In this document: piece after piece, positions 12,980 through 44,196 of the stretch | How positions within the stretch are numbered: position 1 is the first letter of the stretch | Layout: the number at the start of each line of letters is the position of its first letter | DNA from: a virus | Lineage: Duplodnaviria > Heunggongvirae > Uroviricota > Caudoviricetes | Reading direction: 5' to 3' (one strand) | Length of the DNA: 44,196 nt | IMG/VR virus record: IMGVR_UViG_2778261274_000007 | Location: 1-44,196 of that record | Notes under the pieces: generated by a model | Told to the model about the DNA's origin: nothing | The model's database searches: none | What the model saw: the letters and a program-made list of their open reading frames with translations, nothing else | Program-made: the position numbers and the translations under genes

Positions 12980-12994
12980 GGGGCGGTGCCCCTT
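12978..12994. terminator. Stem-loop between the convergent Q and MBL genes (possible bidirectional terminator)
   Basis: AAGGGG-CGGTG-CCCCTT hairpin overlapping both stop codons; weak T-tract. Confidence 0.3.
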
Positions 12995-14084
12995 ATAAGC
13001 AAACAGCAGCGTAATGTGTTTCAACCTTAGGACTAGACGTTAAGCAATTACTAACAGCAACTATTCCAAATTTATTGTTATTATTTGAAAATGAAACTGA
13101 ACTTTTCATCTTCGCTAATATGCTCCGTGCTTCAGCAATCGCAGGTGATTTTTCTTGAGCGTTATCACTTTTAGGCATCGATGTACAGTATAATGCTGAT
13201 GATTTTGATTTGTAGAGGTCGATCATATCCTGCCGTGGTAGTGATGATTTATCATAAGTGGTTAAAATCGAAATAGGGCCTTTTTTGATTAGCTTGTTCC
13301 ATGTTTCCTCATGAAAGCCTGTTTGGGAACCGTGGTGTGGAAGTTTGAAAATACCTGCTAAGTTTGGTTCTGGACGATTTATTGCATTGCAAACGGAATT
13401 CCATCCAGTGTTTTTACTAACTTCTAAATCTGCGCCTAATAATACTTCATTATTTTCTGATGTTGGAGAGCATATTCTGATTACAACGCAGTAGTGATTA
13501 GGATTAACTAATTTAGCAGACATGGCTATTTCGCTAAAATTTGATGATAATTTTGTAGAGTTTGCGAATTCAAGATCAGAGTTTGTTATATCCATATCAG
13601 AAGGCGATAACGAATGTACTTGAATATTCTCGCTGCTTTTGAATAGTATGCAGTCTTTTTTTGCATGGACAAGACGATCATTTTTGTGCAAATCATAGAA
13701 TAAAGACATGACCTTGTTTATTTCTTTAGTTTTTGCCATATCCTCACCATTAACACTTAGTGCATTAATATATCCTCTAAATTCAGATGTGTTCAATGCT
13801 GCGCTAATTACAACTTTTGCATTTTTGCAACTATTAATAATTTCGGCTATCCCTTTAATATGATCATCGTGAAAATGACTAATGACTATCAGTTTTACTT
13901 CATCTTGTGGATTAACACCTTTTTCTTTCAGATAATCTAATGCTGCGGGGCGTTTATTATCATTTAAACAGGAATCAATAATCATCCATTCATTTAACCC
14001 AAGACGAACGGCAATTGATTCGCCAATACCTTTACCAAAAACAATTGTTTCACAGATAGAGTTTTGAACAGTAGGCACCTGCAT
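12993..14084 (-). CDS. MBL-fold metallo-hydrolase, ComEC/Rec2-like (363 aa), predicted nuclease
   Basis: HxHxDH motif (ISHFHDDHIKG) and downstream PHHGS motif; AT-rich. Confidence 0.6.
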   Translation of the reverse strand: MQVPTVQNSICETIVFGKGIGESIAVRLGLNEWMIIDSCLNDNKRPAALDYLKEKGVNPQDEVKLIVISHFHDDHIKGIAEIINSCKNAKVVISAALNTSEFRGYINALSVNGEDMAKTKEINKVMSLFYDLHKNDRLVHAKKDCILFKSSENIQVHSLSPSDMDITNSDLEFANSTKLSSNFSEIAMSAKLVNPNHYCVVIRICSPTSENNEVLLGADLEVSKNTGWNSVCNAINRPEPNLAGIFKLPHHGSQTGFHEETWNKLIKKGPISILTTYDKSSLPRQDMIDLYKSKSSALYCTSMPKSDNAQEKSPAIAEARSILAKMKSSVSFSNNNNKFGIVAVSNCLTSSPKVETHYAAVCL

Positions 14085-14107
14085 TCACCGTATTGCGTAA
14101 TTTCTAA

Positions 14108-14680
14108 TTATTGTTTAAAAATTCTTCTTAGGCGAAATTCGGATACTCTTTTTTCTTGTCCAAATAAAGTTTTTTCCATACCAACATACCAATAAAAAAT
14201 AGCGTTTTCGACAAGTTTTTGTTGATCGCTTTTACTAAATTCATCTGAAGAGAACGTTATCTCATCAATGAATTCATGAGAGTTTATATCATATACTCTA
14301 GCATGTATTTCTTTATTTGATTTCATATTGACAATTTTGTCAATTATACCATAAGTATCTAATGCCTTTTCAAGAAAGGTTATTTTTTCTTTAAGTCTTG
14401 CCTTGAGTTTTTTATGCTGAGTTCTATTTTTCACTCCTTTTTGTGTAGATGGGAATGGTTGCGGAGTAGGTATTTCAATTATATTTGTTGAATATTTTGT
14501 GCTGCAAGTTTCTTGCTGCTGTTCAAATGTTTCAGAATAATTTTCAAAACCTGTCTTAATTATACAGGAAAGAGTTATGTTGTGGGTCTTTACAAATGTT
14601 TCAATGTTTTTTTCTTTTTTTGTTACGCAACGTGTATTACTAAGGCTGGAAGAATTTTCAGGATAGGTTAATATATTCAT
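14108..14680 (-). CDS. Hypothetical protein (190 aa), middle gene of the AT-rich cassette
   Basis: ORF; start overlaps the upstream gene's stop (ATGA); no recognisable domain. Confidence 0.45.
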   Translation of the reverse strand: MNILTYPENSSSLSNTRCVTKKEKNIETFVKTHNITLSCIIKTGFENYSETFEQQQETCSTKYSTNIIEIPTPQPFPSTQKGVKNRTQHKKLKARLKEKITFLEKALDTYGIIDKIVNMKSNKEIHARVYDINSHEFIDEITFSSDEFSKSDQQKLVENAIFYWYVGMEKTLFGQEKRVSEFRLRRIFKQ

Positions 14681-15432
14681 GATAGAATCCGCTTAAACAT
14701 TTGTTCATGGCTGAGGATATCATTCTTAATTGCTGCGGAAATATGTTTTTGAATTATATTTGGGAGTAATTGAGTGAATGCAACAGCGTCACGAATATCT
14801 TTCAAAGCTAGATCGTGATTGTATTGAACATTTAAACCAAATACATCTGGACTAACTTTTCTATACGAAGCATAAGAGACATTGATAGCCTCTTTGTAAA
14901 TTGATTTATCTTCCTTGTTAGAGTTTTCTATTGCAATGACTAAATTTCTCATCCCATAATGATATTCAACTTCATCCTGAAGTATTTCTGATTTATTGTG
15001 TTCTTGCCAATAAATTTTGGGGACTAATGCATCTCCTAACTGATTCCAGTTGGTTTCATTATTAAAATGATAATCAAAAAGGGTGTTTATTCCAACAGCT
15101 TGTGTCTCAGAATGAGGAAACATAGAAAATATTGATGACACTAAGTCTGCCAAGGAATTTTCAAGCCCTGTTTTTTTCAGTTGAAATACTACTTTTGTTG
15201 GTATGCACGTAATCTCAATCCAACCGTAATCTGTTGTTATTGAATCACCATCAAAAGTTGTGTTTGAATTTGCTATATCTTCCTCTCTTAGCAAATCGTA
15301 TCTTCTAAACCATTCAGATGAAAACATCAATGGAGTAATGATGTTAGAGATCCATACAACATTAATCGTATGCTTAATAAGTTTGAAAGTCATAAATTGT
15401 TCTTGGCCCTCAGAATGAAAACCTAAGTGCAT
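14677..15432 (-). CDS. Hypothetical protein (251 aa), first gene of the AT-rich cassette
   Basis: ORF; weak RBS; no recognisable domain. Confidence 0.45.
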   Translation of the reverse strand: MHLGFHSEGQEQFMTFKLIKHTINVVWISNIITPLMFSSEWFRRYDLLREEDIANSNTTFDGDSITTDYGWIEITCIPTKVVFQLKKTGLENSLADLVSSIFSMFPHSETQAVGINTLFDYHFNNETNWNQLGDALVPKIYWQEHNKSEILQDEVEYHYGMRNLVIAIENSNKEDKSIYKEAINVSYASYRKVSPDVFGLNVQYNHDLALKDIRDAVAFTQLLPNIIQKHISAAIKNDILSHEQMFKRILS

Positions 15433-27824: not shown

Positions 27825-29732
27825 ATGGCTGATAATTTTCAGCTGAAAGCCATCATCACCGCCGTTGACAGGCTGTCCGGCCCGCTTAAAGGTATGCAGC
27901 GTCAGCTTAAGGGGTTTCAGAAAGAAGTCTCCAGCCTTGCTCTGGGCGCTGCCGGGGCGGGTACTGCAATAATGGGGGCACTGGCACTCCCTGTAAAATC
28001 AGCCATCACCCTTGAATCGAAGATGGCTGATGTCCGCAAAGTGGTAGACGGTCTGGATACGCCGGATGCGTTTAAGGCCATGACGGAGCAGGTACGCGCT
28101 TTGTCTACTGAGCTTCCCATGTCTGCAGACGGGATCGCGGAAATTGTGGCGGCTGGCGGTCAGGCCGGGATTGCACGTGATGAACTGATGCAGTTTGCCA
28201 CTGATGCGGTGAAGATGGGCGTGGCCTTTGATACCACGGCTGAAGAGTCCGGGCAGATGATGGCCCAGTGGCGTACTGCGTTTAATATGACGCAGGATGA
28301 AGTGGCCGGGCTGGCTGACAAAATCAACTACCTTGGTAATACCGGCCCGGCGAATGCGAAGAAAATCTCCGATATTGTTACGCGTATTGGTCCTTTAGGT
28401 GGTGTTGCAGGTGTGGCTTCCGGCGAAATCGCGGCAATGGGGGCAACCATTGCCGGGATGGGCGTGGAGTCAGAAATTGCCGCCACAGGGATCAAGAACT
28501 TCATGCTTTCCCTGACCGCGGGAAATTCCGCGACAAAATCGCAGAAACAGGCATTACGTTTTCTGCGGATCAATCCGAAGAAATTAGCTGCTGATATGCA
28601 GAAAGATGCCCGGGGAACCATGCTGTCTGTACTGGATGCGATGGCTAAAGTGCCCAAAGAAAAACAGGCAGCTGTGCTGAATGCCCTGTTCGGGAAAGAG
28701 TCTCTGGGCGCGATAGCACCTCTGCTGACTAACCTTGATTTGTTGCGTACCAACTTCAGGCGGGTTGCGGATTCCCAGCAGTATGGCAGTTCGATGCAGA
28801 AGGAATATGCTTCGAGGGCAGCGACGACGGAAAACCAGCTTTTACTTCTGCAAAATCAACTTGATGCCATTTCTTCCACGCTGGGGGAAACGTTTCTTCC
28901 TGAGGTTAATGATGGTCTTGAAGCGGTAAAACCGCTCCTTGAGGAAGTGAGAACGTTTGTCCGTGAAAACCCGGAGCTCGTTAAGACCATTGCTAAAATC
29001 GGTCTGGCCTTACTGACGGTGGGAGCCGCTGCAGGCTCTTTGTCCAGAATTATGAAAGTTCTCGGCGGTGTGATGAATATGACGCCTGCTAAGGGGCTGA
29101 TTGCTCTTCTGGTTGGTGGCGCTTACCTCATTATTGATAACTGGGAAACCGTAGGTCCTGTCATAAAAAAAGTCTGGCACGTGGTGGATGAAACGGCGCA
29201 GGCGATGGGGGGATGGGAAACTGTTCTGAAAGCGATTGCCCTGTTTATGGCAACCAAATGGGTTGCTGACGTTACCAAATCCATTACCGCAGTGACCAGA
29301 GAGATGCGTACGCTGGGGAAGGTATCGGCAGAAACGGGATTGATGGGGAAAGGCCGCGGCTTTATCGGGAAGGCCGGGGTATATGGTTTTCTGGGAACCC
29401 TGATGTATGAGCCGGTTAAAGATACTCTGGAAAGTGTTGTTCCTGAAGATACGGTTAACTGGCTGGATAATAAAGGGCTGTTTCTGGCTTCAGACTGGAC
29501 GCCTTTTTTTGATCGTAAAGAGTACGAGCAGTATCAGGCCAGCCTGAGTCAGTACAAACCCAATGTTCCGCTGTTGAATCCATCTTCTTCCATGACACAG
29601 CACAGCGAGCTGAAAGTCACGTTCGAGAATGCTCCGCCAAGTATGAAGATAATTGATGTACCGGGCAAAGCCGATCCCCTGATGAAAATCACGCACGATG
29701 TGGGGTATTCCCCTTTTCGTTTTCCACGATAA
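27825..29732 (+). CDS. Tail tape measure protein (635 aa)
   Basis: Long Ala/Gly-rich alpha-helical protein in the expected position. Confidence 0.85.
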   Translation: MADNFQLKAIITAVDRLSGPLKGMQRQLKGFQKEVSSLALGAAGAGTAIMGALALPVKSAITLESKMADVRKVVDGLDTPDAFKAMTEQVRALSTELPMSADGIAEIVAAGGQAGIARDELMQFATDAVKMGVAFDTTAEESGQMMAQWRTAFNMTQDEVAGLADKINYLGNTGPANAKKISDIVTRIGPLGGVAGVASGEIAAMGATIAGMGVESEIAATGIKNFMLSLTAGNSATKSQKQALRFLRINPKKLAADMQKDARGTMLSVLDAMAKVPKEKQAAVLNALFGKESLGAIAPLLTNLDLLRTNFRRVADSQQYGSSMQKEYASRAATTENQLLLLQNQLDAISSTLGETFLPEVNDGLEAVKPLLEEVRTFVRENPELVKTIAKIGLALLTVGAAAGSLSRIMKVLGGVMNMTPAKGLIALLVGGAYLIIDNWETVGPVIKKVWHVVDETAQAMGGWETVLKAIALFMATKWVADVTKSITAVTREMRTLGKVSAETGLMGKGRGFIGKAGVYGFLGTLMYEPVKDTLESVVPEDTVNWLDNKGLFLASDWTPFFDRKEYEQYQASLSQYKPNVPLLNPSSSMTQHSELKVTFENAPPSMKIIDVPGKADPLMKITHDVGYSPFRFPR

Positions 29733-34805: not shown

Positions 34806-35486
34806 ATGCATCGTATAGACACGAAAACCGCGCAGAAGGATAAGTTCGGCGCGGGTAAGAACGGTTTTACCCGTGGTAACCCCCAAACCGGCACACCTGC
34901 CACCGATCTGGATGATGACTACTTTGATATGTTGCAGGAAGAACTCTGCAGCGTGGTGGAGGCATCCGGTGCCAGCCTGGAGAAGGCGCGGCACGACCAG
35001 TTGCTTACCGCGCTTCGTGCGCTGCTGTTAAGCCGCAAGAATCCGTTTGGCGATATCAAATCGGATGGCACGGTGAAAACGGCTCTCGAAAACCTTGGTT
35101 TGGGAGAAGCGGCAACGAGGAACGTCGGAACGGATACCGGGCAAGTACCAGATATGAGTAGTTTTACAACGGGGCACTCTGGAGCAGCAGACTGGCCGAA
35201 TCCTAAATCTGGATGGAGTAAGGGGCCGGATGGGGTAATTACACAATGGGGTATTTTCGGTTTCCCCGTTGGACAGACAGGGACGAATGTTGTTTTCCCG
35301 CTACCTTTCCCCGCGCGGGTCGAATCAATTACACTGACAATGGCAGATATCCAGGAGTCTCTGCTTTCTCCAGCAACCATGCCTGCTTATGGAGTTAAAT
35401 CAACTGGTACTTCAAGAACGGGTTTTACAGCCCGTATGTCAGGCGCCGGTGGGTTTAATCTTTGCTATATAGCGAAAGGGAGATAA
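34806..35486 (+). CDS. Tail fibre protein: constant N-terminus fused to the currently expressed variable tip (226 aa)
   Basis: Crossover site lies inside the ORF at 35084..35109. Confidence 0.65.
35084..35109. repeat. Invertase crossover site (hix/gix-like), left
   Basis: TCTCGAAAACCTTGGTTTGGGAGAAG; its reverse complement matches 37032..37057. Confidence 0.55.
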
Positions 35487-35490
35487 CAGA

Positions 35491-35934
35491 ATGAATAAAG
35501 TTAAAAGTGTTTACAGCCCGTCCGAAAATGCAATCTACAACGCAGCGCTATATGAAAGTTATATCAAGGAGGGGACATGGCCGCAGGATGGTATTGAAAT
35601 CAGCGATGAGGATGCTGTCAGATTTAATGGGGGAAATAAGCCAACAGGAAAAATGCTGGGAATGGTTTCAGGGGCCCTTGCATGGGTTGATGAGCCGCCG
35701 CTTTCACCAGAACAGAAAATATCAGATGCAGAAAACATGAAAGCCACATTTCGTGCAAAAGCTGACAGTGAAATATCCTGGCGTCAGGATGCTGTTGATG
35801 CGGGCATTGCAACTGATGAAGAAACTTCAACTCTCACCCAATGGAAGAAATACCGTGTGCTGCTGATGCGTGTTGATACTTCAACAGCCCCCGATATTGA
35901 ATGGCCTACGCCTCCGGCAGTTCAGGCCAGATGA
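35491..35934 (+). CDS. Tail fibre assembly chaperone, current orientation (147 aa)
   Basis: Immediately downstream of the tail fibre gene. Confidence 0.65.
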   Translation: MNKVKSVYSPSENAIYNAALYESYIKEGTWPQDGIEISDEDAVRFNGGNKPTGKMLGMVSGALAWVDEPPLSPEQKISDAENMKATFRAKADSEISWRQDAVDAGIATDEETSTLTQWKKYRVLLMRVDTSTAPDIEWPTPPAVQAR

Positions 35935-36511
35935 CATCCGGCGCGGTGCTGGTATCTGTTACCGTCACCGCGTCAATGTAATCCAGCACGACGTTAAGTC
36001 GGGTTGTTTCTGCCTGCGTCAGCTTCCGCCCGGCCTGTAATTTCAGTTGAATCAGACTGATGGAAGCCATTGCAGCATCAATCAGCGACTGGCGCTGTGC
36101 TTCTGCCGCGTCTACTGCGGCACTATGCTGTGCCTCAGTATCTGTCACCCATTTCTCACCATCCCATTTATCGTATGGCGTTAACGGGACGATAGTGGTT
36201 GTATTTTCAGGGTAATCACACGGAGCTGTGATTTCTTTTGATTCTCCCGTTTCGGTGTTATAGACAACTTCACCGCGATGGTCTGGCACATATTCCCATG
36301 AGTTTAAATCTGCCGAACGGCAGATTGCATAACCAACCTTATGTGTGCCAGGAGCATCTAAACAGGAATATGCAGGGATACCGACACCCACAGCAAGATA
36401 TTCAGTTGATGCAGAAATATACTCCCGTGTCTCACTGTCATAGTTATAAACGGTAATCTCTCCTGCCTTTGTGGCAATAAATTTACTATTCAAGATGGCG
36501 TTATACATCAT
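35906..36511 (-). CDS. Alternative tail fibre assembly chaperone (201 aa)
   Basis: Inverted partner gene inside the invertible segment; C-terminus ...DTSTAPD(V/I)WPE shared with the plus-strand chaperone. Confidence 0.6.
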   Translation of the reverse strand: MMYNAILNSKFIATKAGEITVYNYDSETREYISASTEYLAVGVGIPAYSCLDAPGTHKVGYAICRSADLNSWEYVPDHRGEVVYNTETGESKEITAPCDYPENTTTIVPLTPYDKWDGEKWVTDTEAQHSAAVDAAEAQRQSLIDAAMASISLIQLKLQAGRKLTQAETTRLNVVLDYIDAVTVTDTSTAPDVIWPELPEA

Positions 36512-37086
36512 GCAGCCCTCACAATGTAATTAAATGAAATATTACGTGGGCGTGTCTCTGCTGCACCGACAATACTGGTACTCAACCCCGTCGCTGTTCG
36601 TTTGTTATTTTTATTTCCTTCAATCAGACAGTTGTAATCATCATTACCAATTAACGAATTAGTGGCATCAATACCGTCCGGGGACAAGGCATTAGTTGTA
36701 GAACTTAAAGTCAGCATCTCGTCTGAACTTGGAAGATTTTTTAATGGTATTTCATTGCGAGAAATACCCGCGTAAAAAAAGGACTCATGCCTGTGCGCTT
36801 CAAAAGAGTCATCCTGAAGACTTAGCAAGGCACGTCCCGCATCCACTCCACGCCCGTCATCCCAGCCACGAATAAACTCACCACGTAAATCAGGCAATTT
36901 ATTTGTCGGATAAGCCTTTGCCAGTTCCGGGTATTCTTCTGCAGAAAAAGCGGCACCGTTGCATTTCAGCCAGCCTGTTGGCGGAGTGGCGGAAGGCCAC
37001 GGAACAGGCACGCCAACGGGTAATGCCGAACCTTCTCCCAAACCAACGTTTATGAAAATGCAGAAATAACGAGCAAATGGCATCAT
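36508..37086 (-). CDS. Alternative tail fibre tip with tail-collar domain, silent until inversion (192 aa)
   Basis: Starts at the right crossover site; encodes ...NVGLGEG... matching the ...NLGLGE... junction of the expressed fibre; PDLRGEFIRGWDDGRG collar motif. Confidence 0.55.
   Translation of the reverse strand: MMPFARYFCIFINVGLGEGSALPVGVPVPWPSATPPTGWLKCNGAAFSAEEYPELAKAYPTNKLPDLRGEFIRGWDDGRGVDAGRALLSLQDDSFEAHRHESFFYAGISRNEIPLKNLPSSDEMLTLSSTTNALSPDGIDATNSLIGNDDYNCLIEGNKNNKRTATGLSTSIVGAAETRPRNISFNYIVRAA
37032..37057. repeat. Invertase crossover site (hix/gix-like), right, inverted
   Basis: CTTCTCCCAAACCAACGTTTATGAAA; inverted repeat of the left site. Confidence 0.55.
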
Positions 37087-37112
37087 TCCTGCTTTTGTCA
37101 GGGAGATCTACC

Positions 37113-37667
37113 ATGCTTATTGGCTATGTACGTGTGTCAACAAATGACCAGAACACAGATCTACAACGTAATGCGCTGAACTGTGCAGGATGCGAGCTGA
37201 TTTTTGAAGACAAGATAAGCGGTACAAAGTCCGACAGACCAGGACTGAAAAAGCTGCTCAGGACATTATCGGCAGGTGACACGCTGGTGGTCTGGAAACT
37301 GGACCGACTGGGGCGCAGTATGCGGCATCTTGTCGTGCTGGTGGAGGAGTTGCGCGAACGAGGCATCAACTTTCGTAGTCTGACGGATTCAATTGATACC
37401 AGTACCCCAATGGGGCGCTTTTTCTTTCATGTGATGGGTGCCCTGGCTGAAATGGAGCGTGAACTGATTGTTGAACGAACAAAAGCTGGACTGGAAGCTG
37501 CTCGCGCACAGGGACGAATTGGTGGACGTCGTCCCAAACTTACACCAGAACAATGGGCGCAGGCCGGGCGATTAATTGCATCAGGCGTTCCTCGCCAGAA
37601 GGTGGCGATCATCTATGATGTTGGTATATCGACACTGTATAAGAAGTTTTCGGTCGGAGATAAATGA
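37113..37667 (+). CDS. pin: Serine DNA invertase, Pin/Gin/Hin family (184 aa)
   Basis: MLIGYVRVSTNDQ catalytic-serine motif; C-terminal HTH; adjacent to the invertible segment. Confidence 0.85.
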   Translation: MLIGYVRVSTNDQNTDLQRNALNCAGCELIFEDKISGTKSDRPGLKKLLRTLSAGDTLVVWKLDRLGRSMRHLVVLVEELRERGINFRSLTDSIDTSTPMGRFFFHVMGALAEMERELIVERTKAGLEAARAQGRIGGRRPKLTPEQWAQAGRLIASGVPRQKVAIIYDVGISTLYKKFSVGDK

Positions 37668-37704
37668 AACCGTAGCACGTCGTATGCAAGATCGTGCTGC
37701 GGTT
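37665..37704. repeat. Direct repeat copy 1 (imperfect palindromic stem-loop) at the left edge of the nuclease/R-M cassette
   Basis: TGAAACCGTAGCACGTCGTATGCAAGATCGTGCTGCGGTT; near-identical copy at 41835..41875. Confidence 0.5.
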
Positions 37705-37724
37705 TATGCTTATCACTTAAAGAC

Positions 37725-38543
<819 letters not shown>

Positions 38544-38904
38544 TCATTGCAAGGGCTCACAACCAGTAGTGTTGAGAAAACCATCGGAGAAATGAGGCTA
38601 AGCCTTTGAATTTACATAGTACAAAAAAGATACTTTTCCTCATAATGTGAGCTAATTTTATGTTTCGTTTGATGATTGGACCGGTCTCGAAAACCGTAGA
38701 CACATAGTATGCGTTAATTTATGAACAAACTACTTGTCTGCTGTTTTTCTGTCATTAGTCGTATATAGAATGATTCTCTATGCCTAACAAAGCATCACCA
38801 GTGCTAGATTACGTTGTAGTCACTGTTTAAATATCCAGATAAAACATTTCCTTCTGGGTTGAATGAGTGATAAAGTTTCACCCATTAGACCCCTTGGAGG
38901 AATT

Positions 38905-40338
38905 ATGTCTGAATTTGAAGTGTTGGCACAGCATCTGCTGAAGGAAGCCGAGGCGGAAGAAAAGCTGCGACAGGAAAATGATAAAAAGCTTATCGAGAAA
39001 GTGCTGGAAATCTATGATCAGAAGTATGTGGCTGAATTACTGAGAAAAGTCGGAAAAAATGAGTGGAGCCGTGAAACCATTAACCGCTGGATTAATGGCA
39101 AGTGTTTACCAAAATCGTTGACTTCAGTAGAAGAGTCTCTTCTGCGTAAGATGCTACCAGAACCACCTGCAAACCATCCGGAATATGCTTTCCGCTTCAT
39201 TGACTTATTTGCTGGAATTGGAGGGATACGGAAAGGTTTTGAGGCCATTGGAGGCCAGTGTGTTTTTACCAGTGAATGGAATAAAGATGCTGTGCGTACA
39301 TACAAGGCCAACTGGTTTAACGATGAACAGGTGCATAAATTCAATCTCGATATTCGGGAAGTCACGCTGAGTGATAAAACCGATGTATTGGAAACGGATG
39401 CTTATGCATATATTGATGAGCATGTGCCGGATCATGATGTGCTTCTTGCGGGGTTCCCGTGCCAGCCATTTAGCCTTGCTGGTGTTAGTAAGAAAAACTC
39501 ACTTGGTCGTGCGCATGGTTTTGAATGTGAAGCACAAGGAACACTTTTTTTTGACGTGGCACGTATTATACGAGCAAAAAAACCGGCAATTTTTGTGCTG
39601 GAAAATGTCAAAAATCTGAAGAGCCATGATAAGGGTAAAACTTTCAAAGTCATTATGGAGACCCTTGACGAGCTGGGCTACGAAGTTGCCGATGCTGCAG
39701 AAATGGGAAAAAACGATCCAAAGATTATCGATGGGAAGCATTTTTTGCCTCAGCATCGTGAACGCATTGTTCTGGTCGGATTTAGACGAGATCTGAATAT
39801 TCACAAGGGGTTTACCTTGCGTGATATCAGTCGTTTTTATCCGGAACACCGCCCATCATTTGGTGAATTGCTGGAGCCTGTAGTCGACAGTAAATATATA
39901 CTTACGCCAAAACTATGGGAGTACCTTTATAACTACGCCAAAAAGCATGCAGCCAAGGGGAATGGTTTTGGCTTTGGGTTGGTCAATCCTGAGAATAAGG
40001 AAAGCATTGCACGCACACTTTCTGCCAGATATCACAAAGACGGATCAGAAATTCTTATTGATCGTGGTTGGGATATGGCAACGGGAGAGGCTGACTTTAT
40101 GAATGAGAGTAATCAGGCTCGTCGACCACGCAGGCTGACTCCCCGAGAGTGCGCACGCCTTATGGGATTTGAAAAACCTGGAGGGAAACCATTCCGTATT
40201 CCGGTTTCAGATACTCAGTCATATCGGCAGTTCGGTAACTCAGTTGTGGTGCCAGTATTTGAAGCTGTTGCCAGACTTCTGGAACCCTATATCCTCAAAG
40301 CTGTTTCTGCTGATGCTGGTAAGACTGGGCAGCCTTGA
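38905..40338 (+). CDS. ecoRIIM: DNA C5-cytosine methyltransferase, Dcm / M.EcoRII family (477 aa from internal Met)
   Basis: Motifs I ([10 protein letters not shown]), IV (GFPCQPFS) and VI (ENVKNL); close resemblance to E. coli Dcm; GGAGG RBS at 38896. Confidence 0.8.
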
Positions 40339-40372
40339 GAACATCTCCCGGCCTTTTAAGCCGGGAGTCAGC

Positions 40373-41587
40373 CTATGATAGTTCAGCGTAAAGCTCTATC
40401 AGCTCAGTAATGAATGCTCCGAGCGTTATTAATTCTTCTCTAACTGCTTCTGGGTATTTTTTATGTAAAGTTGATGGTACAACGAGTCTGACACCCGCAT
40501 CTTTCATTTCTCGGTATTGTGCTGAAGAAACACCTTCTTGCAGTGTAAATAAATGTACCTGATGGATTTTATCTGCTTCATTCAGTATCTGACGCCAGCG
40601 ATCTTTGCAGGTGGTCTTTACTGCCAGCATACGTAAGTTTTCTACAGGAAATTCAACGTTATGATATGCCTCTGCTGAAGGAAACAGGAAATCTGGTTTT
40701 TTATTACCTTCAGTAACTGCCTGAGTGGAGAAATGCCGTAGTCCGTGCTCGATAAAAAGCTTCTCTAGGTGAAGTTCAAGTGATTTGCCTGCCCTTGATT
40801 TACGTCGATTACTGACAGAGTTGGCTAATGCAATAAACTCATCTACAGAATCGAATCCTTTCTTAATAATATCAAGAACATGTAATTCCTCGACGAGTAG
40901 AAAAATATCATACTCGACACGCCGACGGTCAATCAGTTGCTCATCTGGATCCTTGGAGTTTTTAGCATAATGGCCAGCAGCATATTGAATAATTTCGTTT
41001 CCAGAAGGAAAACGCTTCTTCCAGTCTTCAGGAATAACATATTTATGATTTACTGGAGTTTGCTGAAGAGACAATCCGCCCAAAATTTGTCCGGCAGGGC
41101 CGGAAATTAGGGTTCCAGGTATGATTTCGCCAATAGCAGACTCGATGATATCCTCTTCATCGGGATTGACGCAGACCCATATATCTACCTCGGAACAGTC
41201 AGTGTTCTGTTCGTTTAACCTGAAAGCAAGAATTGTGAGGGCTCCTGTATTTTCAGGGTTCTGTAATGGACTTCCTCTCCCCCAGCGCGTAATTCTTTTT
41301 TCGTTTCGGGTCTTACCAAAATAACGGTTGTTGTAATAAATTGCGCGTGCTTGGGTATCAGGGCAATCATGGGATGATACATGCGCAGTAAGGAAGACTG
41401 AAGGGTTCAGTTCGCGAGTATGATTGATAGATGGAAAAAGCTTTTCAACGATATTTGAGGGGATATAAAGTCCGACCTGATGGCCACCTGTTGCGCCTGT
41501 GTCGTTTGCAGAAAGGCGTTTGATGTAGATAAAGTAATTCCCGCTTGCGATATCAAGCAGCCAGTTATGAAAAACCGACATATACAT
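40373..41587 (-). CDS. ecoRIIR: Type IIE restriction endonuclease, EcoRII-like (404 aa)
   Basis: Convergent with the Dcm-family methyltransferase; length and N-terminal sequence consistent with R.EcoRII as recalled. Confidence 0.7.
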   Translation of the reverse strand: MYMSVFHNWLLDIASGNYFIYIKRLSANDTGATGGHQVGLYIPSNIVEKLFPSINHTRELNPSVFLTAHVSSHDCPDTQARAIYYNNRYFGKTRNEKRITRWGRGSPLQNPENTGALTILAFRLNEQNTDCSEVDIWVCVNPDEEDIIESAIGEIIPGTLISGPAGQILGGLSLQQTPVNHKYVIPEDWKKRFPSGNEIIQYAAGHYAKNSKDPDEQLIDRRRVEYDIFLLVEELHVLDIIKKGFDSVDEFIALANSVSNRRKSRAGKSLELHLEKLFIEHGLRHFSTQAVTEGNKKPDFLFPSAEAYHNVEFPVENLRMLAVKTTCKDRWRQILNEADKIHQVHLFTLQEGVSSAQYREMKDAGVRLVVPSTLHKKYPEAVREELITLGAFITELIELYAELS

Positions 41588-41667
41588 CCCTTTGTTAACA
41601 TACAGTCAGGGTTAACATTTTTCCATAGTTATAGATAAGCGGCTAGGAACTTAAGGGAAAAACAAAA

Positions 41668-41690
41668 AGCCCGCATAAGCGGGCTTTTGT
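41668..41690 (-). terminator. Rho-independent terminator (strong on the minus strand)
   Basis: AGCCCGC-ATAA-GCGGGCT hairpin; minus strand followed by TTTTTGTTTTT. Confidence 0.4.
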
Positions 41691-41834
41691 GTCACTCGAG
41701 AGCCGCGGCTCCTTTGCGTATCCTTTTTTGTCTCCTCACCGTCTGGTCGGTGTCCTGCTGAGACTGCTAACTTCCTGTTTTTGTTGGTGTTGTCCTTACA
41801 CCGTCCAATCATGATTGGTGGAGCTGGCGGGAGT

Positions 41835-41875
41835 TGAAACCGCAGCCACGTCGTATGCAAGAACGTGCTGCGGTT
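41835..41875. repeat. Direct repeat copy 2 (stem-loop) at the right edge of the nuclease/R-M cassette
   Basis: TGAAACCGCAGCCACGTCGTATGCAAGAACGTGCTGCGGTT; arms AACCGCAGC / GCTGCGGTT are self-complementary. Confidence 0.5.
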
Positions 41876-42233
41876 GGCTGGTGAACTTCCGATAGGGCGA
41901 GTATTGAATGATTTACAGCCGTTATTGATTTTACATATTTTTTGTATGAAAGGATTAGCGCCTCCTTCCACCGATCATCCATGACTTTACGCCACTGTCT
42001 CTAGGACTGCTATGTATGCTGATTGGGGAAAGTGTGAAAGAAAAGAAGACTGCTGCGCTGTTTGTCGTCACCTTTATCTTCATTGGCTATGCAAGTCATA
42101 ATACAAGGTGGGACAAAACTGAGACACATAAGGCCTCACAATGGCTTGCAAGGCTTTACATGTTTTGATGTGGTGGGACGTGTGAGCGCAGTGTTGATGG
42201 GGTAATACTTTGAATTAGAAGCGGATTCTTATA

Positions 42234-42279
42234 ATTCGTAATGCGAAGGTCGTAGGTTCGACTCCTATTATCGGCACCA
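42234..42279 (+). repeat. attR: partial copy of the thrW 3' end
   Basis: 46 bp identical to 1399..1444. Confidence 0.8.
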
Positions 42280-42454
42280 TCCTACCTATTTTAACGTCTC
42301 CTTAAGTCTACTCAAATACCTTTTAAACCCTTATAATACGCGGCTTCACGGCCCTTGTTGTCTCTGCTCGTCTACTCACGTTCACAGAAATCTACGGTGA
42401 GTTGGGGGTATCAATGGGGGTATTCGCTGTTCGGTCTAAAGGAGATACCCCCAG

Positions 42455-43669
42455 ATGAAGCTCAATGCCAGACAGGTCGAGACTGCCAAGCCCAAAGATA
42501 AACCCTACAAGATGGCTGATGGTGGTGGCCTCTACTTATTGGTTAAAACTAACGGGTCACGCTACTGGCGTTTAAAGTATCGTATCGATGGAAAGGAAAA
42601 GTTATTGGCGCTGGGGGTATATCCCGATGTGTCTTTGGCTGATGCCAGAGCAAAGCGTGATGAAGCTCGAAAAGGTATCGCTGGGGGTATCGATCCTTTA
42701 GAGCTTAAGAAAGAACATAAAGCTGAGCGTGAAGCGCAGGTCAAAAACACCTTTCAGCAAATTGCGCTCGAATGGCACAGCATGAAAGTGAAAAAATGGT
42801 CAGTTGGGTATGCCTCTGACATTCTCGAAGCTTTCAATAAAGATATTTTTCCTTTTCTTGGTCAACGGCCTGTTGCGGACATTAAGCCATTAGAGCTTCT
42901 TAATGTGCTTAAAAAAATCGAAGCCAGAGGTGCAACAGAGAAAGCAAAGAAAGTGCGCCAACGATGTGGTGAAGTGTTTCGCTATGCCATCGTGACAGGC
43001 AGAGCCGAGTATAATCCCGCTCCTGATCTCACCAGTGCCATGCAGGGGCATGAATCTACACATTACCCGTTCCTGACCACCGAAGAGCTTCCTGCCTTTT
43101 TTAAAGCCCTTGCTGGCTACTCTGGTAGTGAATTGATGGTGTTGGCAGCAAGATTATTGATCCTTACTGGCCTAAGAACGGGTGAATTGCGTGGTGCCTT
43201 ATGGTCGGAAATCGATTCCGAGAAAGCGCTATGGGAAATTTCTGCTGAACGCATGAAAATGCGCCGTCCTCATATCATCCCGCTATCTACCCAAGCGTTA
43301 GCCATTATCGAAAAGATCAGAGCAATGACGGGACAATTCCCTTTGCTGTTTCCGGGCCGCAATGATCCAAGTAAGACCATGAGCGAAGCCAGTATCAATC
43401 AGGTATTTAAGCGAATCGGCTATACAGGACGGGTTACGGGTCACGGCTTCCGTCATACCATGAGCACCGTTCTTCATGAACAGGGCTACAACACCGCATG
43501 GATTGAAACCCAACTAGCCCATGTTGATAAGAATGCTATCCGTGGCACCTACAACCATGCGCAATATCTCGATGGCAGACGCGAGATGCTGCAATGGTAT
43601 GCCGACTACATGGTAAGCCTTGAGAAAGGCGGTAATGTCGTACAGGGAACGTTTAATCGGTGTGGGTAA
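42455..43669 (+). CDS. Tyrosine integrase, P4-like (404 aa)
   Basis: N-terminal KYRIDGKEKLLALGVYP arm-binding-type region; C-terminal HGFRHT and RGTYNHAQY. Confidence 0.85.
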   Translation: MKLNARQVETAKPKDKPYKMADGGGLYLLVKTNGSRYWRLKYRIDGKEKLLALGVYPDVSLADARAKRDEARKGIAGGIDPLELKKEHKAEREAQVKNTFQQIALEWHSMKVKKWSVGYASDILEAFNKDIFPFLGQRPVADIKPLELLNVLKKIEARGATEKAKKVRQRCGEVFRYAIVTGRAEYNPAPDLTSAMQGHESTHYPFLTTEELPAFFKALAGYSGSELMVLAARLLILTGLRTGELRGALWSEIDSEKALWEISAERMKMRRPHIIPLSTQALAIIEKIRAMTGQFPLLFPGRNDPSKTMSEASINQVFKRIGYTGRVTGHGFRHTMSTVLHEQGYNTAWIETQLAHVDKNAIRGTYNHAQYLDGRREMLQWYADYMVSLEKGGNVVQGTFNRCG

Positions 43670-43995
43670 GGATAACTGCTGATGAAAGAAGGGTTATGTC
43701 TTAACGGCCATAGCCCTTTTTCTTGGCTAATGCAGATAAGAATTAAGTCAGAATTTAAACTGATGTTTATTAAGTAATTGATTAATATGAAAATTATAAA
43801 ATACCTTGAAACAGGAAAATAAATAGCACTTATTGCTAAATCGCTCTACACCCCGCCCAGTGACAGCTCTCCCGCCATTTCATCTGTTTTTGTATGAAAA
43901 ACACTCAATTCGAGTTCAATTCTGATTTTCCGAGGGTTGAACGTCATAAGCGATCTGAAGATACTACATTCATCAAAACAACAACGGAGAAATAT

Positions 43996-44196
43996 ATGAC
44001 AACAAAAAAACTTATTCGCATGCCGGAAGTGATCAATAAAACAGGATTTAGCAAAGCATGGATCTATAGACTTATTAGTAAGGGGGATTTCCCTAAGCCG
44101 ATTAAGATTGGAATAAGAGCCAGTGCCTTTGTTGAAAGTGAGATTGATGAATGGATTGAACAACTGATCTATTCATCACGTAATACAGCTGCATAA
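43996..44196 (+). CDS. alpA: AlpA-family transcriptional regulator (66 aa)
   Basis: MTTKKLIRMPEVINKTGFSKAWIYRLISKGDFPKP resembles AlpA; GGAGA RBS; stop is the last codon of the window. Confidence 0.7.
   Translation: MTTKKLIRMPEVINKTGFSKAWIYRLISKGDFPKPIKIGIRASAFVESEIDEWIEQLIYSSRNTAA

Follow-up and report, generated by a model that had tools for sequence, protein, structure and literature searches.

The closest described counterpart of the locus reported here is the EcoRII restriction-modification (R-M) system of enterobacterial conjugative plasmids (PDB 1NA6, 3HQF, and 3HQG; M.EcoRII). It consists of the same two genes, for an endonuclease (R) and a methyltransferase (M) of 404 and 477 aa, respectively, and shares the convergent layout, a gap of about 34 bp with a hairpin, the domain architecture, and the catalytic and contact residues. 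M also keeps its conserved upstream block and its N-terminal regulatory domain. However, R differs at 14% and M at 10% of amino acid positions, the nucleotide sequences agree at about 80% of positions, and substitutions at synonymous sites have reached saturation. Moreover, the described system resides on plasmids, whereas the present pair is carried by a temperate phage, is accompanied by CMoRE, and is known from sequence. Dcm, the orphan CCWGG methyltransferase that Escherichia coli encodes on its chromosome together with the very-short-patch repair endonuclease Vsr, belongs with M to NCBIfam PRK10458 and has the same motifs, but it is without a partner endonuclease and overlaps vsr, whereas M has R as its partner and is without vsr. 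A temperate-phage precedent is the EcoRII-C endonuclease/Vsr/EcoRII methylase module of Burkholderia phage KL3 (PMC3091744). Its endonuclease, called an EcoRII-C domain protein (PMC3091744), aligns in tblastn with query residues 171–397 of R only, at 39% identity; the module genes, including vsr, are all co-directional, and the host context of this P2-like phage differs at the phylum level. When GenBank phages were searched by DNA and by protein, a close copy was present in no isolated phage, and protein matches were limited to KL3 and to a pair of faecal phage contigs that carry no annotation (about 38%–40%).

Two further systems bear on the surroundings of the pair. The gtrABC cassettes of Shigella phages SfI, SfII, SfIV, and SfV belong to the same phage family, use the same thrW site, and fill the same slot, flanked by the tail-fibre genes and attP/int, but their cargo serves O-antigen glucosylation, whereas the cargo described here is DNA-level defence (CMoRE and R-M). 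PD-T4-3/CMoRE (PDB 9U75 and 9U7U), biochemically a 5hmC/5ghmC-specific endonuclease (PMC12923530), is matched over its full length by a gene in our sequence. Its neighbour in O157:H7 is an AraC-type regulator, whereas the neighbour here is the R-M pair.

We consider it very probable that the window (the whole stretch of 44,196 nucleotides analysed) holds a functional-looking type IIE R-M system of the EcoRII family as accessory cargo of a temperate myovirus that belongs to the SfI/SfII/SfIV/SfV group, is apparently complete, and is integrated at thrW. The pair is ordinary, publicly annotated defence cargo and not a new kind of system. An earlier note on this DNA had described M and R as convergent, and both open reading frames (ORFs) lie exactly where it placed them, with stop codons separated by 34 bp. 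The locus comprises the following features.

38905–40338, plus strand: M gene, C5 cytosine methyltransferase of the M.EcoRII/Dcm subfamily, 477 aa, predicted to methylate CCWGG
40373–41587, minus strand: R gene, type IIE endonuclease of the EcoRII family, ORF of 404 aa
40345–40367, no strand: hairpin CTCCCGGC-CTTTTAA-GCCGGGAG within the 34-bp gap between M and R, read from the sequence
38823–38904, plus strand: M upstream block of about 82 bp, conserved with the plasmid EcoRII-type locus, with the inverted repeat CCAGA...TCTGG
41588–41650, minus strand: region upstream of R, shared in part with the plasmid EcoRII-type locus, with a TATAAC -10-like element
41665–41688, no strand: GC-rich terminator-like hairpin (10-bp stem with 6 GC pairs, then a T run), which would insulate R from the right

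R aligns with crystallised R.EcoRII (PDB 1NA6) from end to end (E 3e-243), with 86% identity across 403 residues and zero gaps, and its N-terminus MYMSVFHNWLLDIASGNYF corresponds to MLMSVFHNWLLEIACENYF of R.EcoRII. The resemblance in size and N-terminus that had been pointed out earlier is thus that of an EcoRII orthologue. Both parts of the two-domain architecture are present, namely a B3-like effector-binding N-terminal domain (Pfam EcoRII-N, residues 18–165, E 4e-61) and a PD-(D/E)XK catalytic C-terminal domain (EcoRII-C, residues 229–393, E 2e-71). All 21 catalytic or DNA-contacting residues of R.EcoRII named in PMC2770665 are kept: the four active-site residues (E271, D299, K324, and E337), the CC:GG half-site readers of the catalytic domain (K328, D329, R330, and N260), and 13 of 13 base or backbone contacts of the effector domain (N28, H36, Q37, Y41, R81, Y85, K92, T93, R94, E96, R98, T100, and R101) are identical. 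Residue 88 is R in the window endonuclease and Ala in the 1NA6 chain. RefSeq, in which R has the accession WP_000110239.1, places the start of R 6 nt downstream of the ORF start (41581, 402 aa), and this is probably the true start, since it better fits the AAGG ribosome-binding site.

The ATG of M at 38905 follows a GGAGG Shine-Dalgarno sequence at a distance of 5–6 nt, while no such site lies ahead of the longer start obtained by extending the ORF to 38863; in loci of 100% identity, RefSeq likewise delimits M as a gene of 1434 nt (WP_001288444.1). M matches Pfam DNA_methylase (E 4e-78) and DNA_meth_N (PF18284, residues 28–84, E 7e-27), the latter in a region that is autoregulatory in M.EcoRII, and it also matches PRK10458 (927 bits; cutoff 710) and the cytosine-specific methyltransferase 3ME5 (E 4e-209). 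The canonical C5-MTase motifs ascribed to M in the earlier note were sought as patterns I (FxGxG), IV (PCQ), VI (ENV), VIII (QxRxR), IX, and X (GN), and all six are present (FAGIGG at 102, GFPCQPFS at 183, ENV at 233, QHRER at 283, TPRE at 412, and GNS at 444). M had also been called close to Dcm. Amino acid identity to K-12 Dcm is indeed 66%, although the plasmid M.EcoRII-type enzyme is closer still (90%). In the gapless alignment of the target-recognition region (296–408), identity is 94% to the plasmid enzyme versus 65% to Dcm; residues 1–95 are 84% identical to the plasmid enzyme, and in the N-terminal domain, identity to Dcm is only 35%.

For these Pfam and structure matches of M and R, chance is excluded by far. 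With plasmid EcoRII-type genes as reference, dS for M and R is about 1.5–1.8 and dN/dS is 0.03–0.04 (0.034 for M and 0.043 for R), and both genes are under strong purifying selection. No other specificity family is indicated for the endonuclease, given its identity to R.EcoRII, and no inactivating mutations were found in the two full-length ORFs, the points on which the earlier note had made its assignment depend. A specificity for CCWGG is suggested by the 86%–90% identity of the two proteins together with the conserved contact residues.

The convergent arrangement recurs, with a gap of 33 bp, in a plasmid locus that encodes an R with 96.5% identity to 1NA6, and a hairpin (TCCCGG...CCGGGA) is found at the same position in the plasmid EcoRII-type locus although the flanks diverge; the hairpin at 40345–40367 is probably a bidirectional terminator. 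Homology to the plasmid locus begins abruptly at the left edge of the M upstream block (38823) and, in blastn, stops at 41649 on the R side. The conserved 82-bp block, considered with the published autoregulation of M.EcoRII (reviewed in PMC12707154), makes 38823–38904 a candidate promoter/operator for autoregulation of M, and the region at 41588–41650 may act as the promoter of R. A simple consensus sigma-70 scan gave 12 promoter-like sites compared with 9.1 +/- 2.5 in shuffled sequence, with no above-background match in the M upstream block. As this does not rise above the shuffled background, no promoter call is made from the scan, and expression in the lysogen is predicted only.

The element that carries the pair is apparently a complete E. 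coli prophage of about 40.8 kb, similar to SfI/SfII/SfIV/SfV and integrated at thrW.

1369–1444, plus strand: thrW tRNA-Thr(CGT) on the attL side (ARAGORN and Rfam), with proA upstream
42234–42281, plus strand: attR, 48 bp identical to window positions 1399–1446 in the 3' part of thrW, from an exact-repeat search
1459–2622, minus strand: tyrosine integrase of the prophage (387 aa) with an intact ORF, as long as the gene for the SfIV integrase (1164 nt)
37113–37667, plus strand: pin-type serine invertase (Pfam Resolvase and HTH_7; pinE in matching loci), tail-fibre switch and left neighbour of the cargo slot

The ORFs for integrase, terminase, portal, capsid, sheath, tape-measure, and baseplate are intact, and the structural genes exhibit 97% nucleotide identity to SfIV/SfII/SfI. 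M and R occupy the slot between the tail fibres and attP where SfIV has gtrABC. That the pair is prophage-borne, as previously claimed, is supported by its position inside the att boundaries (1369–1444 and 42234–42281), by its presence on a circular phage genome, and by its occurrence on 34 IMG/VR viral contigs. The circular genome, a 43,671-bp record from E. coli CT01, represents a related complete phage in which CMoRE-M-R is flanked by the tail genes and int. Elsewhere in the window, a PADLOC scan of the low-GC genes at 12993–15432 returned only weak MBL-fold similarity, and Rfam at the gathering threshold returned tRNA only. The prophage contains 74 CCWGG sites (74.1 expected; median spacing 426 bp), so that by observed/expected count there is no avoidance of the sequence. 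With this number of sites, prophage DNA has to be protected and would serve R well as a substrate.

Among 5,426 complete E. coli genomes, about 261 (roughly 5%) carry the window R-M allele, and the cassette is found in both SfV-like and lambda-like prophages, usually beside CMoRE. The exact M and R proteins each occur on at least 1000 public contigs, and the 34 IMG/VR contigs carry R at 95% identity or more. In many independently predicted prophages the cassette lies 0.6–1.8 kb from the prophage end. The novelty is small: we document an EcoRII-type allele in a prophage cargo slot, in roughly this share of complete genomes. The locus offers a convenient natural case for judging what a restriction system is worth where the species already has a matching orphan methylase. 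Lysogeny by such phages can alter both the restriction barrier of a strain and its source of CCWGG methylation, which matters for transformation and conjugation and for studies of host range in phage therapy.

Coexistence with Dcm is the norm, as dcm-vsr is present in 5359 of 5426 complete E. coli genomes. The question raised earlier, whether the pair is redundant or addictive in Dcm-positive hosts, already has a published answer: where Dcm is present, the killing of hosts that lose EcoRII is attenuated (reviewed in PMC3874152), and incoming plasmids are no longer restricted by EcoRII if their donor has Dcm (PMC11602122). By analogy with published work on EcoRII, M would methylate the inner cytosine of CCWGG in the lysogen and would probably repress its own promoter via the N-terminal domain. 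The R dimer would be autoinhibited until its N-terminal domains bind an effector CCWGG, whereupon the C-terminal core would flip the central base pair and cut unmethylated DNA with multiple CCWGG sites. With CCWGG methylation by Dcm nearly universal in E. coli, the R-M pair is probably harmless to gain or lose in such hosts and blind to fully Dcm-modified DNA. Its targets would be DNA of Dcm-negative origin or under-methylated phage DNA, and M may also secure full CCWGG methylation of outgoing progeny phage. Since Dcm is nearly universal, the defensive gain within E. coli populations may be small.

It is possible, though we hold it to be rather unlikely, that the pair mainly benefits the phage, with M fully methylating phage DNA during replication and so shielding progeny from EcoRII-type restriction in the next host, R adding little where about 99% of strains are Dcm-positive, and the cassette hitch-hiking on a successful mosaic segment. 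The frequency of dcm-vsr and the escape of plasmids from dcm+ donors (PMC11602122) are consistent with this, copies across genomes are at least 99% identical, which fits the recent spread of one segment, and decayed copies of R are known. However, an orphan M would be enough for self-protection, purifying selection on R equals that on M, and R is intact over at least 99% of its length in 32 of the 34 IMG/VR loci. We note that benefit to the phage overlaps with our preferred explanation and differs from it only in which benefit dominates.

The reading of the pair as defence cargo extends to its neighbour, a defence nuclease that the earlier note had overlooked.

37725–38498, minus strand: PD-T4-3/CMoRE, GIY-YIG type IV endonuclease for 5hmC/5ghmC DNA, divergent from M
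41816–41875, no strand: relic att-like sequence, an ssrA-like piece overlapping a 41-bp repeat

The product matches PADLOC PDLC04031 over model positions 1–255 of 256 (E 5e-140) and differs from E. coli O157:H7 CMoRE (PDB 9U75) by 5 substitutions in 257 aligned residues. The family match is full-length, the GIYxY-YIG motif residues Y17, Y19, and Y31 are present (GWYVY...FYVG), and the C-terminal modification-sensing domain is present. Roles for this GIY-YIG gene as a homing endonuclease mobilising the cassette, or as a Vsr analogue, were considered and dropped on its identification as CMoRE. Because CMoRE adjoins M and R, the cargo slot holds two complementary defences; CMoRE would cover the T-even phages, whose hydroxymethylated cytosines evade restriction-modification. 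A more speculative proposal, to which we give only limited credence, is that CMoRE-M-R constitutes a co-selected defence module of temperate coliphages directed at cytosine status, captured once from an ssrA-integrating element and moved between the unrelated backbones of SfV-like and lambda-like prophages, with Dcm letting the restriction enzyme ride safely. If so, EcoRII would cut unmodified CCWGG, CMoRE would cut hydroxymethylated or glucosylated cytosine, and 5mC DNA alone would pass, 5mC being the state common to the host (through Dcm) and the phage (through M). Near-universal Dcm may then permit a restriction enzyme on a phage that enters naive cells.

CMoRE, M, and R are bracketed by a 41-bp imperfect direct repeat (37665–37704 and 41835–41875). 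The right copy is fused to a mimic of the ssrA 3' end, in that 41816–41843 (minus strand) is a 28-nt copy (27/28) of the ssrA/tmRNA 3' end, and in phage LLS the same relic stretch is annotated as 'tmRNA pseudogene / attP'. Rfam at E up to 1 on 41500–42400 scored the tmRNA-like piece at 9.5 bits against a threshold of 47, and it is thus a fragment and not a gene. The repeat with its mimic, which resembles the attP of ssrA-integrating phages, could indicate that the cassette is what remains of a small island of its own, lodged between the prophage and the element that follows at thrW; 38700–42029 is replaced by other genes in O157:H7, and a second integrase lies beyond attR. We regard this as improbable, because the cassette is within the 48-bp thrW repeats, lies between the tail genes and int on the circular 43.7-kb phage genome, and sits close to the end of many independently predicted prophages, and because the bracketed segment is without an integrase or transposase.

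Accessory cargo of the phage, then, remains our reading, and it is very improbable that M and R are inactive relics tolerated thanks to protection of the chromosome by Dcm. Some copies are disrupted (IS100 lies inside R in strain 203740, and R is frameshifted in IMG/VR contig L045), and Dcm would render loss of either gene harmless. In the window, however, both ORFs are full length, all checked functional residues and the upstream regulatory blocks are conserved, and dN/dS is low. A specificity other than CCWGG, such as the CCNGG or CCSGG of Ecl18kI/SsoII/PspGI, is scarcely credible, as the weak similarity of the R catalytic domain to Ecl18kI (E 2e-4) and PspGI (E 4e-4) is marginal beside its identity to R.EcoRII, the central T:A readers (N28, Q37, Y85, and R98) and the half-site readers are identical, and the target-recognition region of M is that of the plasmid enzyme at 94%.

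Finally, we note that two IMG/VR contigs whose R is intact have T7 in place of the T8 tract of M (39545–39552). Such alleles were looked at as possible natural R+ M- genotypes, which would show Dcm cross-protection in nature, but homopolymer errors are suspected. The complete genome AH02 carries frameshift flags on M and R alike, a pattern that points to sequencing errors in homopolymers behind the change from T8 to T7. Across an 88-bp stretch including the T8 tract, 253 of 263 E. coli records match the window.

Our reading of the R-M pair begins with its layout, and the elements that define its position in the E. coli prophage are listed here.

Features of the prophage setting and of the R-M pair
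Start of the window: proA, followed by thrW
1369-1444: thrW, a tRNA-Thr gene, after proA
34806-37667: invertible tail-fibre segment, made up of pin and two opposed sets of genes for tail-fibre C-termini and assembly chaperones
37113-37667: pin invertase gene, in the invertible segment
38905-40338, plus strand: M, the C5 cytosine methyltransferase gene (1434 nt, 477 aa; preferred start 38905)
Within the 34-bp gap between the stop codons of M and R: hairpin CTCCCGGC-CTTTTAA-GCCGGGAG, read from the sequence
41587 to 40373, minus strand: R, the EcoRII-type endonuclease gene (404 aa, or 402 aa from the RefSeq start two codons later)

Reading the ORFs of the window placed both genes exactly where the earlier note had put them, and its convergent arrangement holds, with M on the plus strand, R on the minus strand and stop codons 34 bp apart. 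The sequence GGAGG lies just 5' of the M start codon, an earlier in-frame ATG at 38863 lacks a ribosome-binding site, and the RefSeq gene model in identical loci has the same 1434-nt gene. For R, an AAGG motif is better spaced from the RefSeq start than from the 404-aa start.

M encodes DNA_methylase and N-terminal DNA_meth_N domains (Pfam), scores above the NCBIfam PRK10458 subfamily cutoff, and contains the canonical C5-methyltransferase motifs that had been claimed for it (I, IV, VI, VIII, IX, and X were found). The proposed resemblance to Dcm is also real, at 66% identity to the K-12 enzyme, but M is closer (90%) to its counterpart in an EcoRII-type plasmid locus, whose endonuclease is 96.5% identical to crystallised R.EcoRII (1NA6). 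Between motifs VIII and IX, the target-determining region is 94% identical to that of the plasmid enzyme. R was rightly recognised as R.EcoRII-like: it comprises EcoRII-N and EcoRII-C domains (Pfam), aligns with 1NA6 over its full length without gaps (E 3e-243; 86% global identity), and in a PDB search also matches 3HQF and 3HQG, in which the N- and C-domains were crystallised separately. In R.EcoRII, catalysis involves E271, D299, K324, and E337, the CC:GG half-site is read by K328, D329, R330, and N260, and the effector domain makes contacts through N28, H36, Q37, Y41, R81, Y85, K92, T93, R94, E96, R98, T100, and R101 (Golovenko et al., PMC2770665); all 21 of these residues are identical in R.

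Homology to the plasmid locus spans 38823-41649. Beyond the genes, it takes in a block of about 82 bp 5' of M that starts abruptly, the hairpin between the genes, and some 60 bp 5' of R. Measured against its plasmid counterpart, M has a dN/dS of 0.034 and R one of 0.043, and synonymous sites are close to saturated; both genes have therefore stayed functional over a long divergence. By every sequence-level criterion examined, the pair belongs to the EcoRII family, with CCWGG as its predicted specificity.

The pair was described as prophage-borne, and its surroundings bear this out. An exact-repeat search found the final 48 bp of the thrW region again at 42234-42281, and the DNA that the two copies enclose encodes an intact 387-aa integrase, early functions of lambdoid type, lysis proteins, terminase, HK97-type head proteins and Mu-type sheath, tube and baseplate proteins; next comes the invertible tail-fibre segment with the pin invertase, which is like those of e14 and Mu. 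The structural region shares 97% identity with the Shigella phages SfIV, SfII, SfI, and SfV. Where SfIV carries gtrA, gtrB, and gtrIV between its tail-fibre genes and int, the window carries pin, a GIY-YIG gene, M and R, which identifies the pair as cargo in the classic accessory slot beside attP. Independent support for this location comes from a complete related phage genome, a circular record of 43,671 bp from E. coli CT01 (gene order acyltransferase, GIY-YIG, M, R, DinI, int), and from 34 IMG/VR viral contigs on which a copy of R with at least 95% identity usually lies 0.6-1.8 kb from a predicted prophage end. A 4.3-kb stretch (37667-42015) also ends, at 99.6% identity, a lambda-like prophage with J, Lom, and Stf/Tfa in strain LR-17-1.

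The GIY-YIG gene (37725-38498, minus strand), divergent from M, is PD-T4-3 (PADLOC E 5e-140), and its product shows just 5 differences from crystallised E. coli O157:H7 CMoRE (9U75) over 257 aligned residues. As a type IV endonuclease, CMoRE degrades DNA containing 5hmC or 5ghmC, the cytosine substitutions by which T-even phages resist restriction-modification systems, with no binding or cleavage of unmodified or 5mC DNA (PMC12923530). It should therefore tolerate 5mC made by M and complement EcoRII, and the three genes together form a predicted two-system defence cargo. Among 5,426 complete E. coli genomes, CMoRE occurs in 823, the prophage-type M allele in 261 and the CMoRE-M junction in 242, so that the two often, but not always, occur together; a separate count of 377 genomes also takes in EcoRII copies of the plasmid type, which are about 80% identical.

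CMoRE, M and R are flanked by a direct repeat of 41 bp (imperfect, 38/41; 37665-37704 and 41835-41875), the right copy of which is joined to a 28-nt copy (27/28) of the ssrA/tmRNA 3' end (41816-41843, minus strand). The same stretch is annotated in phage LLS as "tmRNA pseudogene / attP", and the CT01 phage has a 76%-identical copy left of CMoRE as well (27957-28085). It may be a relic att site, the module having been captured from an ssrA-integrating element. In two E. coli O157:H7 loci, homology to the window stops at 38699 and restarts at 42030, and an AraC-type regulator and an IS remnant stand beside CMoRE in place of the pair; 38700-42029 is the variable segment of the slot.

As 5,359 of the 5,426 genomes have dcm-vsr, at least 194 of the 261 carriers of the M allele must have both enzymes. 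The question of redundancy or addiction in Dcm-positive hosts is already covered by the literature: host killing after EcoRII loss is attenuated by Dcm (reviewed in PMC3874152), and EcoRII restricts plasmids from dcm- but not from dcm+ donors (PMC11602122). The prophage contains 74 CCWGG sites, exactly the expected number, at a median spacing of 426 bp, and its DNA, if unmethylated, would be a good EcoRII substrate. We infer that in E. coli the system would be cheap to acquire and to lose, that its main targets would be DNA of Dcm-negative origin or phage DNA that is under-methylated while it replicates, and that it could also guarantee full CCWGG methylation of progeny phage.

The exact M and R proteins each occur on at least 1000 public contigs, named "DNA cytosine methyltransferase" and "type II restriction endonuclease" by NCBI. 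Burkholderia phage KL3 is a precedent for a phage-borne EcoRII-related module (PMC3091744), although its endonuclease aligns with R only over residues 171-397 and its module includes vsr. The papers searched contain no explicit account of this allele's prophage location or CMoRE pairing, which are modest contextual additions.

Two further loci were observed in the window. Directly after attR (42234-42281), a P4-type integrase gene (42455-43669, plus strand; Arm-DNA-bind_3, Phage_int_M, and Phage_integrase domains) and a small ORF (43894-44196, plus strand) begin a second element, in tandem at thrW, that runs past the window end. Between the Q antiterminator and holin genes, a low-GC (31-34%) three-gene insert (12993-15432, minus strand) encodes an MBL-fold hydrolase that in PADLOC weakly resembles DRT-associated (E 2e-11) and LmuA-like (E 6e-7) proteins; the other two genes had no family matches. 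This insert may be a further site of accessory or defence cargo.

Altered copies occur in other genomes. E. coli DP051 (NZ_CP156034.1, 3650491-3676390) has this prophage too, with 99.9-100% identity at either end, but an internal deletion has fused a truncated terminase gene to a tail-fibre assembly gene; the early region and CMoRE-M-R remain, making it a defective prophage with defence genes retained. In strain 203740 (NZ_CP025913.1, 2227847-2233106), IS100 (IS21 family) splits R into two annotated fragments and M is intact; in one genome IS1 separates CMoRE from M, and R is frameshifted in one IMG/VR contig. Within M, a T8 homopolymer (39545-39552) encodes Leu-Phe-Phe between motifs IV and VI. 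Two IMG/VR loci have T7 there, a frameshift in M, with R intact in both; these alleles may be real Dcm-sheltered R+ M- genotypes or sequencing errors. In the complete genome AH02, the match across this stretch is 1 nt shorter and both M and R are flagged as frameshifted, which looks like homopolymer sequencing error.
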